Source of the DNA: a virus
Lineage: Duplodnaviria; Heunggongvirae; Uroviricota; Caudoviricetes
DNA length: 4,141 nucleotides
IMG/VR virus record: IMGVR_UViG_2671181106_000002
Reading direction: 5' to 3' (one strand)
Under the pieces are notes generated by a model. The model was not told the origin of the DNA and searched no databases. It worked only from the letters and a program-made list of their open reading frames with translations. The position numbers and the translations under genes were made by a program. This document shows, in pieces, positions 1-4,141 of this stretch. Positions within the stretch are counted from its first letter, which is position 1; the number at the start of each line of letters is the position of its first letter.

Positions 1-959
1 TTCCCGAGAGTGGTAAAGGAGAGGCCCTGGAAATACCCCACAGCCCCGAAAAAGAGCCAGTCAGTTGCTTAACTGACTGGCATTACAGCAAACTGGAGGA
101 GTTTTCGAAAGAGTGGAAAGACGCCAACGATAAATGGAATGCCATGTGGGGCGTCAAAATTGAGCAGACCGAAGACGGCAGGCATTATGTCGCGGGTATT
201 GGCCTCAGCATGGAGGATACGGAGGAAGGCAAACTGAGCCAGTTCCTGGTTGCCGCTAACCGTATCGCGTTTATTGACCCGGCAAACGGGAGTGAAACGC
301 CGATGTTTGTGGCGCAGGGCAACCAGATATTCATGAACGAAGTGTTCCTGAAGTATCTGACGGCTCCCACCATTACCAGCGGCGGCAATCCGCCGGTATT
401 TTCCCTGACACCGGACGGGCGGTTGACGGCGAAAAATGCCGATATCAGCGGTAACGTGAATGCGAACTCAGGGACGCTCAATAATGTCACGATTAACCAG
501 AACTGTCGGATTCTGGGAAAACTGTCTGCCAACCAGATTGAAGGTGATATTGTCAAAACGGTGGGAAAAGCCTTTCCGAGAAATGGCAGTTATGCCAGCG
601 GTACAATAACGGTCACTGTGTACGATGACCAGGCTTTTGACCGTCAGATAGTAATCCCACCCGTTCTGTTTCGCGGTGGTAAGCATGAAAACTTCAACAG
701 CAACAACCAACAGTCATACTGGTATTCAACCTGTAAGCTGCAGGTACTGAAGAACGGACAGGAAATCTTTCAGCAACCCGCGACGGATGTCAGCAGGGTA
801 TTTTCATCCGTCATTGATATGCCAGCGGGACACGGCCATGTCACCCTGACTTTCAATGTTTCTTCATATGGTGCAAATAACTGGACGCCAACGACCAGTA
901 TCAGCGACCTTCTTGTTGTCGTGATGAAGAAATCAACAGCCGGTATCAGTATCAGTTGA
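1..959 (+). CDS. J: Central tail fibre / host specificity protein J, C-terminal part (5'-truncated by window edge)
   Basis: Frame 3 is open from position 3 with no stop until TGA at 957-959; the listed ORF 144..959 is only the part after the first in-frame ATG. The translation ([48 protein letters not shown]...[15 protein letters not shown]...IDMPAG.G...) matches my recollection of the C-terminal receptor-binding region of phage lambda gpJ, including its characteristic ending (...KK...GISI/V). The last ~170 residues look more diverged than the first part. Confidence 0.9.
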
Positions 960-977
960 ATTTTATAACCCAAATAC

Positions 978-1006
978 GGGCGCCAGAAATGGCGCCTTTT
1001 TTATTT
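978..1006 (+). terminator. Rho-independent terminator downstream of J (tJ-like)
   Basis: Perfect 6-bp GC-rich inverted repeat GGCGCC (979-984) / GGCGCC (991-996) with a 6-nt loop AGAAAT, followed directly by TTTTTTATTT (997-1006). It lies 20 nt after the J stop codon. Confidence 0.7.
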
Positions 1007-1017
1007 GTGGAGTGAAT

Positions 1018-3078
1018 ATGGCAGTACAGATTTCAGGCGTGCTGAAAGACGGTGCAGGAAAACCAATACAGAACTGTACTATTCAGCTCAAAGCAAAGCG
1101 TAACAGCACCACGGTACTGGTGAACACGGTGGCCTCTGAAAATCCGGATGAAGCCGGGCGTTACAGCATGGATGTTGAGTATGGCCAGTACAGCGTCACC
1201 CTGCTGGTTGAAGGTTTTCCGCCTTCACATGCCGGGACCATTACCGTCTATGAAGGCTCCAGACCAGGTACGCTGAATGATTTTCTCGGTGCCATGACGG
1301 AAGATGATGTCATGCCGGAGGCATTGCGTCGTTTTGAGGTAATGGTGGAGGATGTGGCACGCAACGCTGAAGCCGCCTCTCAGAGCGCAGCGGCAGCAAA
1401 GAAATCAGAAACAGCAGCGGCATCGTCCAGGAACGCGGCGAAAACATCAGAGACGAATGCAGGTAACAGCGCGAAAGCGGCAGCTTCTTCAAAAACAGCC
1501 GCACAAAACGCAGCAACAGCGGCAGAACGTTCAGAGACAAATGCCCGTGCGTCAGAAGAAGCCTCCGCAGACAGTGAAGAGGCTTCCCGCCGTAATGCAG
1601 AGTCAGCCGCTGAAAATGCCGGAGTCGCCACCACAAAAGCGCGGGAGGCTGCAGCAGACGCAACAAAGGCCGGGCAGAAAAAGGATGAGGCTCTGTCGGC
1701 AGCGACACGAGCTGAAAAGGCGGCAGACCGCGCAGAAGCCGCAGCGGAAGTGACTGCAGAGCCCTATGCGAATATAGTGCCGCCGCTGCCTGATGTGTGG
1801 ATACCGTTTAACGATTCACTGGATATGATTGCGGGTTTTTCTCCGGGCTATAAAAAAATAGCTATTGGTGACGATGTGGTTCAGGTCGCCAGTGATAAAC
1901 AGGTTAATTTCAGTCGCGCATCAACGGCAACATATATCAACAAATCTGGCGAACTGAAAACGGCGGAAATTAATGAGCCGCGATTTGAGTGTGATGGCCT
2001 GCTTATTGAGGGACAAAGAACGAACTACATGCTCAATTCGGAAAGTCCAGCCAGCTGGGGGAAGTCATCAAACATGGATGTGCCCGAAACCGGGACGGAT
2101 AGTTTTGGTTTTACTTATGGAAAGTTTGTCTGCAACGATTCTCTGGTTGGGCAAACTTCGGCTATTAATATGGCATCAATTGCTGCAACAAAGTCAGTTG
2201 ATGTCTCAGGCGATAACAAGTACGTGACAACCTCATGCCGTTTTAAAACAGAACGACAGGTAAGGTTACGTATACGGTTTGATAAGTATGATGGTAGTGC
2301 AACAACTTTTCTTGGCGATGCGTACATTGATACGCAAACGCTTGAAATTAATATGACAGGTGGTGCTGCCGGCAGAATTACGGCACGAGTCAGGAAGGAT
2401 AAGACCACGGGCTGGATTTTTGCAGAGGCAACGATTCAGGCAATTGATGGTGAGTTAAAAATAGGCTCTCAGATACAGTATTCTCCTGAGCAGGGTGGGG
2501 CAACAGTATCTGGTGACTATATTTATCTTGCCACCCCACAAGTAGAGAATGGGCCGTGTGTATCATCATTTATTATTTCAGGAGGCAGCGCAACGACAAG
2601 AGCCAGTGATTTGGTTAGTATCCCCACCAGAAATAATCTTTATAAGTTACCATTTACTTTTTTACTTGAGATTCATAAAAACTGGGATATTGCACCAAAC
2701 GCCGCACCCCGCGTGTGGGATATAGCAGCAGCCAATACCGGGCAATCAGCAATTGCAGCAATCAACAGAGGTAGTGGTAAGTTATATATGAGTCTGTCAA
2801 ACCCTTCAGGCTCGTATGTTAATAGCGCAGCGACAGATGTATTTGCAGAGAAAACCACATTTGGATGTATTGCAAAAGCTGATGGTCACTTTCATGTGGT
2901 GACAAATGGTAAAGCGGTTAATGAAGTTTATTGTGAATATAATGGCGTGACCGCTGATAAAAATATCCGATTTGGAGGGCAGACGAATACTGGAGAACGA
3001 CATCTGTTTGGCCATATTCGCAATTTCCGCATATGGCATAAAGAATTAAATGACAGGCAATTAAAAGAGGTCGTATGA
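1018..3078 (+). CDS. stf: Side tail fibre protein (Stf-like) with mosaic C-terminal receptor-binding module
   Basis: 686-codon ORF. ATG at 1018 is preceded by GGAG (1009-1012) with a 5-nt spacer; the track's ORF begins 6 nt earlier at an in-frame GTG (1012). N-terminus MAVQISGVLKDGAGKPIQNCTIQLKA...GRYSMDVEYGQYSV...FPPSHAGTITVYE resembles the conserved N-terminal domain of lambda Stf / lambdoid side tail fibres as I recall it. It is followed by an Ala/Ser/Glu-rich region with KTSETNA / RSETNA motifs, also Stf-like. The C-terminal ~440 aa are unrelated to the Gly/His-rich lambda Stf C-terminus. Stop TGA at 3076-3078. Confidence 0.9.
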   Translation: MAVQISGVLKDGAGKPIQNCTIQLKAKRNSTTVLVNTVASENPDEAGRYSMDVEYGQYSVTLLVEGFPPSHAGTITVYEGSRPGTLNDFLGAMTEDDVMPEALRRFEVMVEDVARNAEAASQSAAAAKKSETAAASSRNAAKTSETNAGNSAKAAASSKTAAQNAATAAERSETNARASEEASADSEEASRRNAESAAENAGVATTKAREAAADATKAGQKKDEALSAATRAEKAADRAEAAAEVTAEPYANIVPPLPDVWIPFNDSLDMIAGFSPGYKKIAIGDDVVQVASDKQVNFSRASTATYINKSGELKTAEINEPRFECDGLLIEGQRTNYMLNSESPASWGKSSNMDVPETGTDSFGFTYGKFVCNDSLVGQTSAINMASIAATKSVDVSGDNKYVTTSCRFKTERQVRLRIRFDKYDGSATTFLGDAYIDTQTLEINMTGGAAGRITARVRKDKTTGWIFAEATIQAIDGELKIGSQIQYSPEQGGATVSGDYIYLATPQVENGPCVSSFIISGGSATTRASDLVSIPTRNNLYKLPFTFLLEIHKNWDIAPNAAPRVWDIAAANTGQSAIAAINRGSGKLYMSLSNPSGSYVNSAATDVFAEKTTFGCIAKADGHFHVVTNGKAVNEVYCEYNGVTADKNIRFGGQTNTGERHLFGHIRNFRIWHKELNDRQLKEVV
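1354..1750 (+). repeat. Low-complexity Ala/Ser/Glu-rich degenerate repeat region inside stf (fibre shaft)
   Basis: The protein segment ...EAASQSAAAAKKSETAAASSRNAAKTSETNAGNSAKAAASSKTAAQNAATAAERSETNARASEEAS... has recurring GCx/TCx/GAx codons and repeated DNA words (tcagagacGaatgc at ~1447 and tcagagacAaatgc at ~1533). The region is open in several frames on both strands, which explains the overlapping shadow ORFs 1352..1753 (+), 1310..1708 (-) and 1380..1634 (-). Confidence 0.7.
2540..3075 (+). other. Probable concanavalin A-like / LamG-like lectin domain at the Stf C-terminus (domain annotation inside stf)
   Basis: The C-terminal segment ...GHFHVVTNGKAVNEVYCEYNGVTADKNIRFGGQTNTGERHLFGHIRNFRIWHKELNDRQLKEVV follows the characteristic end pattern of LamG/ConA-like jellyroll domains (core strand 'HxxVVxxG', then 'xxFxGxIxxxRIY/WxxxLxxxEI/L'). 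This is motif-level recognition only and the domain start is approximate. Confidence 0.45.
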
Positions 3079-3353
3079 AAGATTTAACTTTGAAGTTTCA
3101 TGACAAACTGCAGTTTAAGGCCTTCCTGTCATCTCTTGGCTGGGCGGAAGATGAAGACCTCCAGAATAAACTGTTAGTTGATGAAATTGGTTTCACCTAC
3201 ACAGAAACAGGGGTAACAGAAGAGGGAGAACCTGTCTGTATCCGGAATGATGGTTATTTTGTCAACATTCGCATTCTTGATGACTTGTTTGATGTTTCTG
3301 TATTCTCTGATTATGTCGTGGAGCTGGAAACACCGCTTCGGGAATGGAGCTGA
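3075..3353 (+). CDS. Hypothetical small acidic protein (92 aa), translationally coupled to stf; function unknown
   Basis: The ATG at 3075-3077 overlaps the stf stop (ATGA overlap). AAGAGG (3064-3069) lies 5 nt upstream. The ORF ends at TGA 3351-3353. The product MKDLTLKFHDKLQFKAFLSSLGWAEDEDLQNK... is acidic with no hydrophobic segment. Its AT-rich composition matches the 3' part of stf. It does not resemble the lambda Tfa N-terminus as I recall it. Confidence 0.7.
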   Translation: MKDLTLKFHDKLQFKAFLSSLGWAEDEDLQNKLLVDEIGFTYTETGVTEEGEPVCIRNDGYFVNIRILDDLFDVSVFSDYVVELETPLREWS

Positions 3354-3360
3354 AAGGAGG
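3354..3360 (+). promoter_or_regulatory. Shine-Dalgarno sequence for the downstream membrane-protein ORF
   Basis: AAGGAGG at 3354-3360, then a 5-nt spacer (AAATA) and ATG at 3366. It sits immediately after the orf92 stop, giving an operon-like arrangement. Confidence 0.8.
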
Positions 3361-3365
3361 AAATA

Positions 3366-3806
3366 ATGGATATAAGCCCCTTACTTCATGCACTTTGTGC
3401 TGTGGCTGCGCAGATACTGGTTGGTCTTTTTACCGGAAACTGGGCTTACGGAGCGATAGCCGGTTGTACGTTCTTCATTGCGCGTGAACATACCCAGGCA
3501 GAATATCGCTGGATTGAAATGTTCGGGCATGGCAAGCGAATGAATATGCCGTGGTGGGGCGGTTTTGATCCGCGTGCTTGGGATGTGGCAAGCCTGATGG
3601 ATTTTGCTGTGCCGGTGGTGGCGTGTCTGCTGGTCTGGCTGTTGGTTAATCGTGGGCGAAAAAAGGTGAGCTGTATATGCAACGGAGGAAGAAACCCCGT
3701 TGCTGGAAGCCAGGAAAAAGTATCGGGTGTTGCTGTCCTCGGATGTTGTGCTAATTGGGTGATAACAGATCCTGTGTATGGGAGTTTCCCTTTTTGCGTG
3801 CGTTGA
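3366..3806 (+). CDS. Hypothetical small membrane protein (predicted 2-3 transmembrane segments); C-terminal extent uncertain
   Basis: Strong RBS. Hydrophobic stretches at about residues 8-40 (LHALCAVAAQILVGLFTGNWAYGAIAGCTFFIA) and 73-95 (WDVASLMDFAVPVVACLLVWLLV) are followed by basic NRGRKK. The GC-richer composition differs from orf92. The final ~45 codons (VSCICNGGRNPVAGSQEK...FCVR) have an atypical Cys/Gly-rich composition and overlap the 3' end of the convergent permease gene, so the true C-terminus may be shorter or the ORF may be junction-derived. Confidence 0.6.
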   Translation: MDISPLLHALCAVAAQILVGLFTGNWAYGAIAGCTFFIAREHTQAEYRWIEMFGHGKRMNMPWWGGFDPRAWDVASLMDFAVPVVACLLVWLLVNRGRKKVSCICNGGRNPVAGSQEKVSGVAVLGCCANWVITDPVYGSFPFCVR

Positions 3807-4141
3807 TGCTGGTAACGGCAAACGTCATGATGAACAAAACCGCGAATAAGACGACAATCGTCGGAGCTGGTGCGCTGTCGATAAAAAAGGACAACCAGAC
3901 ACCAGTCATTGACACTATTACCGATATGCCAGTCGCCAGTAGGAGCGCAATATGAAAGCGTTGTGTCAGGAGTACCGCAATGGCGCCAGGCGCAATGAGC
4001 AGAGAAATGGAGAGAATGATACCTACCGCTTTCAGCGTCGCCACAATGGTCAGAGAGACCATGCACAGCAGCCCATAATGCAGCCATCTCGTATGCAAAC
4101 CGCTTACCTGCGCCTGTTGATAATCAAAGCTAAACTGCATA
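3751..4141 (-). CDS. sitD: ABC-3 family metal (Mn2+/Fe2+) transporter permease, C-terminal part; SitD-like (5' end lies beyond the window)
   Basis: The minus-strand ORF is open to the window edge, with stop TAG (complement of 3751-3753). The translation ...LHTRWLHYGLLCMVSLTIVATLKAVGIILSISLLIAPGAIAVLLTQRFHIA...FFIDSAPAPTIVVLFAVLFIMTF... has the characteristic C-terminal pattern of ZnuB/MntB/SitD-type permeases (compare ZnuB ...VGALIITSLLIIPAATAR...YDTPAGPSVVLCAALLFIL). sit operons are known to lie next to lambdoid prophage DNA in E. coli/Shigella. The sitD assignment is from memory, not a search. Confidence 0.65.
   Translation of the reverse strand, partial: MQFSFDYQQAQVSGLHTRWLHYGLLCMVSLTIVATLKAVGIILSISLLIAPGAIAVLLTQRFHIALLLATGISVIVSMTGVWLSFFIDSAPAPTIVVLFAVLFIMTFAVTSINARKKGNSHTQDLLSPN

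Follow-up and report, generated by a model that had tools for sequence, protein, structure and literature searches.

Lambdoid side tail fibres set the speed of adsorption and the strains that are adsorbed to, and it is these parts that are swapped in order to retarget phages or delivery particles derived from them. In Ur-lambda, the StfN domain of the fibre forms a collar that touches gpV and gpM, and Stf residues 239-345 fall within a proximal coiled coil spanning residues 102-393 (PMC12617516). The L-shaped tail fibre pb1 of phage T5, which serves here as an analogy only, is a dispensable side fibre that binds polysaccharide and speeds adsorption (PMC12617516). The head spike fibre of the gene transfer agent RcGTA binds capsular polysaccharide (PMC7296036, PMC10218006); only its residues 2-10 have been resolved, and its globular part is without a solved structure (PMC7296036). 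The closest known relatives of the fibre described here are the stf product of coliphage 21 (UMO75437.1, OL657228), which owes its annotation to a BLASTP match to lambda orf-401, and the fibres of mEp460, ev017, PhiR63_2 and Perceval. The announcement of the phage 21 genome is silent on the side tail fibre, and a literature search covering phage 21 stf, the mEp460, ev017 and Jouyvirus fibres and tail fibres with Laminin_G_3 found no specific study; the tip family is very common, yet no experimental work on it was found. The gene is catalogued but uncharacterised, although its kind is well known; mosaic fibres and tips of lectin-like type are established knowledge, and the current understanding of phage biology is left unchanged.

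The window, by which we mean the whole stretch of 4,141 nucleotides that was analysed, contains the features collected in table 1. Judged from its sequence, the fibre gene is an intact copy of the coliphage 21 side tail fibre gene: the product is 98.1% identical in amino acids to the annotated phage 21 'side tail fiber' across all 686 residues. The phrog_1419 (tail protein) profile matches it over the full length (E = 0, 1113 bits), the top-scoring stretch pairing fibre residues 194-686 with profile positions 299-793. Translation probably begins at the ATG at 1018 and not at the GTG at 1012, as a GGAG ribosome-binding site occupies positions 1009-1012.

Table 1. Features of the window and the evidence for each.
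Feature	Coordinates	Strand	Basis
J central tail fibre gene, 3' part (C-terminal receptor-binding domain)	87..959	+	PF12421, PF09327; RefSeq annotation of identical locus
Terminator-like hairpin and T-run between J and fibre gene	978..1007	+	Consensus scan
Side tail fibre gene, 686 aa, intact	1018..3078	+	Allele of phage 21 stf (CPT_21_22)
StfN collar (anchor) domain, aa 1-94	1018..1299	+	PF08400; PDB 9E7M/9MGH
Ala-rich shaft, aa ~101-253, presumed trimeric coiled coil	1318..1776	+	Composition; lambda Stf alignment
Portable C-terminal tip module, aa 254-686, all-beta	1777..3075	+	P2-like junctions; AF2 model
D1, GTA head-spike-fibre-like, aa ~297-543	1906..2646	+	NF048003; RcGTA Rcc01080
D2, LamG/pentraxin-type ConA-like, aa ~545-686	2650..3075	+	Laminin_G_3; profile matches
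orf92, conserved tip partner, ATGA overlap	3075..3353	+	Translationally coupled; synteny
orf97, small membrane protein ORF	3366..3806	+	Phage 21, L007, L008 alignment; phrog_1443

The surroundings of the gene follow a lambda-like tail operon. The fibre gene lies downstream of J, as in phage 21, with which the window shares the order J, stf, orf92, orf97, sitDCBA, and phage 21 has an annotated terminator in the same gap between J and stf. Unlike in lambda, no lom gene is present between J and stf. On the one hand, phage 21 is a viable phage; on the other hand, the fibre gene of the window belongs to a degraded chromosomal prophage beside sitABCD, where J is truncated upstream by IS4 and where neither head genes nor tail genes other than this J remnant were found. 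Since such a prophage remnant cannot build a tail, the fibre could not be assembled from the locus alone, and the gene, itself well preserved, is carried along in this genome as a passenger of the decayed prophage. Among 5426 complete E. coli genomes, 563 contain the entire 4.1-kb block.

The N-terminal part of the fibre is shared with lambda, as the original prediction had proposed for the anchor. PF08400 (phage_tail_N) matches residues 1-131 (E 4.8e-67, 224.5 bits against a cutoff of 26.6), the lambda 'Tail fiber protein' of PDB 9E7M/9MGH matches residues 1-94 (E 6.7e-49), and lambda orf-401 is 73% identical by BLASTP over residues 1-158; homology to lambda at the DNA level stops at nt 1367, near residue 117. 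Compared with phage 21, codons 1-100 belong to another lineage: their synonymous divergence (pS) is 0.35, against 0.01-0.06 for the remainder of the gene. The shaft, which had been described as a SETNA-repeat, is indeed rich in Ala (34% of residues 101-255), but 'repeat' was an overstatement: the motif SETNA is present at just two places (aa 144 and 172) and SETAA at one (130), and a search for tandem repeats in the DNA of the shaft found none. It resembles lambda only loosely, with 53% identity to lambda Stf 239-345 in a composition-biased match, and its trimeric state and coiled-coil structure are presumed. The fibre thus resembles lambda Stf in its collar domain, its Ala-rich stalk, its position after J and, presumably, in speeding up adsorption without being essential; it differs in having a stalk about half as long as the lambda proximal coiled coil and in lacking the hinge of lambda Stf.

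Beyond the shaft the protein has nothing in common with lambda Stf, and this part of the original prediction was borne out: the C-terminal ~430 residues show no similarity to lambda orf-314 (best E 5.6), and in place of a T4-gp37-like distal domain and an OmpC-binding tip, both absent from this fibre, there is a ConA-like β-sandwich tip. The AF2 monomer model of the tip (pLDDT 93.9, pTM 0.90) has the jellyroll β-sandwich fold of the ConA-like lectin/glucanase superfamily, and its matches are β-sandwich (ConA-like) domains. ConA-like folds are also found to bind proteins or to act as enzymes. The terminal ConA/LamG-like jellyroll that had been predicted corresponds to D2, but the tip is more than one terminal jellyroll: it consists of D1 and D2, and the kinship of D1 to RcGTA had been missed. 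Laminin_G_3 (PF13385) scores 25.0 bits against residues 560-681, just below its gathering score of 27.6, and 27.9-35.3 bits, above the gathering score, at the same C-terminal position of homologues; 30 of 54 family members match the model (best E 1.9e-11), which for the family would place the assignment far beyond chance. Profile matches of D2 include 4qvs, BoNT/D HcN, CRP and CBM40, and its hypervariable core covers residues ~565-660. An internal duplication giving rise to D1 and D2 was considered and rejected (hhalign probability 0.1, no detectable homology).

D1 is where the kinship to RcGTA resides. The GTA_spike_fiber model NF048003 matches residues 329-529 with 55.7 bits (cutoff 36), and Rcc01080 is found by phmmer with E 1.4e-9 and by the family profile with E 4.7e-42; the two proteins share the motifs TRA..ATY...EPRF...LL.E..TN and Q.E.G...SS.I.T....TRA.D. 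With the family profile, D1 is also homologous to Sf11 gp17 and to E217 gp45/Pa193 gp46. These relatives differ from the fibre in how they are mounted. The RcGTA fibre plugs into the capsid penton base through an N-terminal Ile/Leu-Gly repeat (PMC7296036), whereas the window fibre has the StfN tail collar; moreover, the RcGTA fibre is 325 aa long and its alignment ends at residue ~280-285, which leaves no room for a domain of the size of D2. The peripheral domains of gp45 of Pseudomonas phage E217 and gp46 of Pa193 (baseplate triplex) and the C-terminal appendage of the Dit gp17 of Shigella phage Sf11 are decorations of the baseplate or tail hub and not fibre tips.

Taken with the anchor and shaft, these domains make it likely that the phage-21-type side tail fibre is an accessory adhesin of four exchangeable parts, the tip of which most likely binds surface polysaccharide. 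The StfN collar domain would clamp the fibre onto the tail tip of a lambda-like tail, and the Ala-rich stalk would keep the three chains together. The β-sandwich tip of D1 and D2 would reversibly bind O-antigen, LPS core or capsule, and could thereby tether the virion and speed the search of J for its essential receptor. Specificity would reside in the cores of the two domains, which are hypervariable and are exchanged by recombination between the conserved sequences that flank them. Carbohydrate binding is inferred here from relatives, and the kinship to the capsule-binding head spike fibre provides a concrete hypothesis about the ligand; considering that the RcGTA fibre acts as a single chain on the capsid, its function may not transfer to the tip.

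The same relatives bear on what else the tip could recognise. If the ConA-like sandwiches were only a scaffold for variable loops, the receptor could be a protein, for instance a porin of the outer membrane: OmpC is bound by lambda Stf (PMC12617516), the structural neighbours of the tip include protein-binding LamG/neurexin and BoNT domains, and hypervariable cores suit either kind of ligand. We regard a protein receptor as rather unlikely, because capsular polysaccharide is the ligand of the RcGTA head spike fibre, the sole relative for which functional data exist, and because the best structural matches of the tip (AbnA domain 4, CBM40 and pentraxins) are carbohydrate-binding modules and lectin-like domains. 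In another reading the tip would itself be an enzyme, a polysaccharide depolymerase or esterase with the fold of ConA-like glucanases, and would break the surface glycan down instead of only binding to it; we consider this improbable. Among the domain models searched, no right-handed β-helix depolymerase family matched the fibre, and depolymerase chains in the PDB match by phmmer only anchor and shaft residues 85-168 (E 0.08-0.4).

The same tip, 88-92% identical in amino acids, occurs in P2-like prophages, where it is joined to N-termini of the P2-H type; the match begins at nt 1777 in L008 and at nt 1783 in L007, which puts the junction at residue 254 or 256, in the motif PLPDVWIPFNDSL. At the level of sequence comparison, its presence on P2-type myovirus fibres proves that the module has been exchanged. 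This claim rests mainly on L008 and L009, loci taken from an NCBI genome and a Logan assembly, because L007, a metagenome contig with P2 fibre, tip and sitDCBA, might be a chimeric assembly. The N-termini of the P2-type H proteins carry a tail-collar fibre domain (PF12571 with or without PF03406) for a contractile-tail baseplate, in contrast to the StfN domain of the window. The switch that had been predicted near residue 245 (nt 1750) was therefore real and misplaced by about ten residues, and the protein is not collinear with a single fibre family. Likewise, host-range module exchange stands, as P2-type fibres carry the tip, but it was not located within a conserved shaft: the junctions lie at the boundaries between anchor and shaft (~codon 100-117) and between shaft and tip, outside any conserved shaft interior. 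In this sense the fibre is a real but ordinary case of host-range shuffling in phages.

Across the family the tip is found in 2875 representative clusters, C-terminal wherever the whole module was matched, behind diverse N-termini (PF08400, PF12571, PF18668). Within the tip, fibres with D1 94-97% identical have D2 cores only 18-36% identical, and the cores of D1 and D2 are exchanged independently between conserved flanks, which are marked by PLPDVWIPFNDSL...NEPRFE..GLLIEGQRTN, by PQVE...SS.I....TRASD and by RHLFGHIRNFRIWHKEL. The alignment of 54 sequences held no conserved stretch fit for a genome scan and an alignment of 12 sequences was used; as the scan relied on two peptide patterns only, the 16 loci obtained under-sample the tip family.

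The exchanged unit reaches past the fibre gene and includes orf92 and, in close relatives, orf97. In 12 of 12 full-length tip loci, which span Escherichia to Aeromonas, the next gene after the tip is a small ORF, 92-104 aa long except in one locus, where it has 136 aa, and in nine of them a homologue of orf92 is detectable. The word-index search with orf92 returned only 47 clusters, from E. coli and Shigella, and the wider range is seen only through synteny and PHROG profiles. A Tfa/Caudo_TAP gene is absent from the position directly downstream of the fibre, which is occupied by orf92; this protein is probably an assembly factor or adaptor. In the proposed mechanism the mobile unit would consist of the tip and the coupled orf92, acting as assembly factor in place of Tfa, together with orf97 in close relatives. 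The exact junction at the motif given above, two independently swappable cores and a small partner ORF that always accompanies the tip amount to a practical recipe for chimeric fibres, and they give a reason to co-transfer orf92.

An adaptor role for orf92 could also mean that the tip mainly docks a second short fibre, forming a branched fibre, and that the lineage of the window has lost this second fibre and kept a vestigial hub. In HannyBb, L011, L013, L016 and L025 a second fibre gene does follow orf92, its product having no tail-attachment domain and ending in a Peptidase_S74 intramolecular chaperone, and the D1 homologues of Sf11 (Dit), E217 (gp45) and Pa193 (gp46) decorate structural hubs. 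A C-terminal intramolecular chaperone is also used by pb1 of T5. Nevertheless, docking as the main function is very improbable: the types of D2 do not sort by presence or absence of the second fibre, D2 is hypervariable, unlike a docking surface, and the second fibre is absent from the genomes of phage 21 and ev203-type phages, while P2-like prophages have the tip without it.

The tip and its partners are shared as one block with the P2-type H proteins P0086 and P0089, which have the tip, orf92 and orf97 in common with the window. In L008 a Caudo_TAP remnant lies beyond the shared block, which suggests that the block replaced the tip of H and most of G. Tentatively, the tip, orf92 and, in E. 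coli phages, orf97 may form a portable host-range cassette moving between non-contractile lambda-like and contractile P2-like tails, in which orf92 would represent a new class of assembly factor or adaptor replacing Tfa, and orf97 would guard the lysogen or its progeny from interaction with the cognate receptor in the manner of T5 Llp. The 97-aa form of orf97 accompanies the tip in E. coli phages and close relatives, and phage 21 annotates it as a putative membrane protein with two TMDs. In the window the TGA stop at 3657-3659 has become CGA, a stop-loss that lengthens the ORF to 146 aa, and homology with the P2-like L008 stops at nt 3648, just before this ancestral stop.

The gene under study is an intact ORF with GGAG five bases 5' of its ATG at 1018, and its N-terminus is lambda-Stf-like, as originally predicted: residues 1-131 match PF08400 (E 4.8e-67), residues 1-94 match the solved collar domain of lambda Stf (9E7M/9MGH, E 6.7e-49), and residues 1-158 are 73% identical to lambda orf-401 (BLASTP). 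The DNA homology with lambda stops at nt 1367. The stalk is rich in Ala (34%), but the SETNA repeat by which the original prediction had described it occurs only twice, with SETAA once, and no DNA-level tandem repeat was found in it. It is 53% identical to lambda Stf 239-345, a region included in the proximal coiled coil of Ur-lambda gpStf (residues 102-393; PMC12617516), and spans about 150 residues, whereas the lambda stalk has about 290. The stalk has a GC content of 0.58-0.60 and the tip one of 0.42-0.46, a drop due in part to GCN alanine codons. The C-terminal part has no similarity to lambda orf-314, in agreement with the claim that this module differs from the lambda fibre.

Close homologues of the tip carry differing N-termini. 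In two proteins, P0086 (774 aa) and P0089 (595 aa), whose tips are 92% and 88% identical to that of the window, the N-terminal part is a P2-type tail-collar fibre domain (PF12571, with or without PF03406), and their genes stand in the place of H in P2-like prophages, 3' of the baseplate genes V, W, J and I. The onset of DNA identity with the window lies at nt 1783 for the metagenome contig L007 and nt 1777 for the P2-like locus L008, that is, at residues 256 and 254, and it is exactly the motif PLPDVWIPFNDSL, which comes after each unrelated N-terminal part. Judged from these alignments, the junction is the stalk/tip boundary; the switch had been predicted near residue 245, which is close. Homology with L008 covers nt 1777-3648, beginning with the tip and ending immediately ahead of the stop codon that the 97-aa ORF (orf97) had ancestrally, and a Caudo_TAP remnant lies beyond this block. 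A second junction emerges against phage 21: codons 1-100 have a synonymous divergence of 0.35, the remainder of the gene one of 0.01-0.06.

An exhaustive search of cluster representatives returned 2875 clusters with E ≤ 1e-3, of which 75 reached E ≤ 1e-30, and wherever the tip was matched whole it was C-terminal, in proteins of 420-1481 aa. An alignment of 54 diverse relatives taken from this search gave an all-beta AF2 model (mean pLDDT 93.9, pTM 0.90), whose matches in structure searches, including Foldseek, were all ConA-like lectin/glucanase-fold domains. Sequence profiles divide the tip into two parts, D1 and D2, between which no relatedness was detectable. The D1 family profile matches the RcGTA head spike fibre Rcc01080 (E 4.7e-42), as well as E217 gp45 and Pa193 gp46 (about E 2.5e-16). 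The D2 profile matches 4qvs (2e-5) and, at about 2e-3 to 4e-3, BoNT/D HcN, C-reactive protein and CBM40; the Laminin_G_3 model is matched by 30 of the 54 aligned relatives, and D2 homologues score 27.9-35.3 bits, in every case at the extreme C-terminus. The ConA-like fold of the model and the Laminin_G_3 scores of the homologues bear out the probable ConA/LamG-like domain predicted at the C-terminus, but the tip has two parts.

Features of the window, of the fibre tip and of loci with a second short fibre gene
Feature	Position	Strand	Remarks
IS4-adjacent end	nt 1-85		unmatched in genomes free of the IS4 insertion
central fibre gene J, 3' part	nt 87-959		PF12421 and PF09327
terminator-like hairpin, then T-run	nt 978-997
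fibre ORF, 686 aa	nt 1018-3078	plus
D1	about aa 297-543		NCBIfam NF048003 'GTA_spike_fiber', 55.7 bits (cutoff 36)
D2	about aa 545-686		Laminin_G_3, 25.0 bits, slightly below gathering score
orf92, 92 aa	nt 3075-3353		ATG overlaps TGA of fibre gene
orf97, small membrane-protein ORF	nt 3366-3806
sitD, 3' part	nt 3751-4140	minus	PF00950
second short fibre gene	L005 4164-5195; L011 4132-5172; also L013, L016, L025		phrog_4563

Identity profiles reveal a mosaic nested within the mosaic. In HannyBb and in the related locus L011 the D1 core is 94-97% identical to that of the window, whereas the D2 core is only 28-35% identical, and the D2 cores of these two share 28% identity. In ev203 both cores differ (30% and 26% identity), and the DNA flanking them is 90-96% identical (nt 143-2027 and 2967-4139). 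Three stretches of the tip are conserved: the entry motif together with NEPRFE..GLLIEGQRTN, PQVE...SS.I....TRASD between the domains, and RHLFGHIRNFRIWHKEL at the end. Almost every invariant column of the family falls within them, and the RcGTA fibre shares their motifs. Such an arrangement, with hypervariable cores flanked by conserved recombination handles, is what receptor-specificity determinants would be expected to show. In phage 4A7 (L006 3426-4926), and also in Lambda_4C10, 1W, 3W and a phage named D2, the fibre gene stops at residue 643; in 4A7, the record inspected of the five, 'Mobile element protein' ORFs follow, and the last conserved strand of the D2 domain appears to have been lost to an insertion element.

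By analogy with Ur-lambda, three chains would be joined in the stalk and the collar domains would attach to the tail at the level of gpV and gpM; the tips would point sideways and meet the cell surface before J locates its receptor. The RcGTA head spike fibre, the sole tip relative with functional data, binds capsular polysaccharide (PMC7296036, PMC10218006). Because of this relative, and because the nearest folds to the tip are carbohydrate-binding modules and lectin-like domains, we favour a tip that binds glycans (O-antigen, core or capsule) reversibly; the D1 and D2 cores would set its specificity. Less likely alternatives are a protein receptor, which variable cores would also fit, and an enzymatic activity of the lectin/glucanase fold; the capsule-binding relative and the lectin-like neighbours speak for glycan binding. 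D1 homology extends to residues 217-405 of gp17, the distal tail protein (Dit) of Shigella phage Sf11 (PDB 9OCC), which form its large, unmodelled C-terminal appendage (E 2.6e-18); the authors of the structure give this appendage as being of unknown function, and the homology suggests that it, too, binds glycans.

Fibre mosaicism and lectin-like tips are textbook knowledge. This fibre is already catalogued (phrog_1419, NF048003, the phage 21 annotation), and a literature search for experimental work on it found none. The additions made here are modest: exact junctions, a two-part tip with independently exchanged cores, homology to a capsule-binding GTA fibre, and an orf92 partner conserved across genera and across siphovirus and myovirus tails.

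For the orf92 partner, a pattern scan gave 12 genome loci with a full-length tip, from Escherichia, Leclercia, Silvania, Buttiauxella, Atlantibacter, Aeromonas and a Solemya symbiont. An ORF begins at or overlaps the fibre stop codon in all 12, with 92-104 aa in 11 and 136 aa in one. By tblastn, eight loci (Escherichia, Leclercia, Buttiauxella, Atlantibacter, Silvania) have an orf92 homologue; the Aeromonas copy in L017, the one scanned of the three from that genus, matches phrog_18574, as does orf92 itself, and the Solemya copy had no match in PHROG. A second short fibre gene separates orf92 from the orf97 homologue in phages of the HannyBb type and in several enterobacterial prophages; its product (234-358 aa) has a C-terminal Peptidase_S74 intramolecular chaperone and no tail-attachment domain, an architecture that hints at branched fibres. 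A docking role of the tip for the second fibre is an unlikely alternative; the window and phage 21 are without that gene, and glycan binding remains the favoured function. At 3657-3659 orf97 has CGA where phage 21, L007 and L008 have TGA, and it therefore extends to 146 aa, overlapping the opposite-strand end of sitD; RefSeq labels the extended ORF 'incomplete'. The sitABCD iron/manganese transporter operon (window 3751-4140, minus strand, and beyond; L002 7734-11183) directly follows the fibre cassette both in phage 21, which is viable, and in the chromosomal remnant, and is therefore a phage-borne cargo operon. In L007, the tip, orf92, orf97 and sitDCBA stand behind a P2-type fibre, an arrangement that is either genuine or due to chimeric assembly.

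The window is the right end of a lambdoid tail operon. It differs from E. coli FDAARGOS_536 at three positions, none inside the fibre gene, and is 96% identical to phage 21 DNA, with the order J, stf, orf92, orf97, sitDCBA in both. Identity of the fibre protein is 98.1% with the phage 21 'side tail fiber' and 97.7-98.5% with the fibres of mEp460, ev017, PhiR63_2, PhiR57_1 and Perceval. Gene J is interrupted by IS4; in NZ_CP033762, the identical genome, the transposase CDS of this element reaches as far as window position 72. This insertion is common to only three among the best 20 genome matches, and a strong minus-strand hairpin (56-81) is probably part of the IS end.

Only a remnant of the prophage is present at the icd site, with a frameshifted integrase and several IS elements. 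No head/tail-operon genes lie between the lysozyme gene and J, all head and proximal tail genes being missing: in L001 a truncated lysozyme (glycoside hydrolase) gene runs directly into J, in H4 / L010 (E. coli MCJCHV-1) a single CDS annotated gpJ begins at the essD stop, and in the window's genome J is additionally split by IS4. A fibre cannot be built from the remnant locus alone, and the gene may be only recombination stock for incoming phages; the remnant copies are 99.9% identical to each other and are therefore uninformative on selection for retention. The remnant retains int/xis (frameshifted), O/P, Q, a phage-borne OmpC-like porin and essD (L010 1-20000, L001 1-6000), and between P and the nin region it carries an inserted gene for an inverse autotransporter. 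RefSeq/PGAP cuts the fibre ORF (L001 7018-9078; L010 20933-22993) into a 'pseudogene' for a prophage tail fiber N-terminal domain, 'missing C-terminus', and an in-frame CDS with an internal start, 'phage head spike fiber domain-containing protein', whose length is 574 aa (L001) or 417 aa (L010). Across the fibre gene, L001 and the window do not differ in sequence, and the split is therefore, at least in L001, an annotation artefact of domain-based naming.
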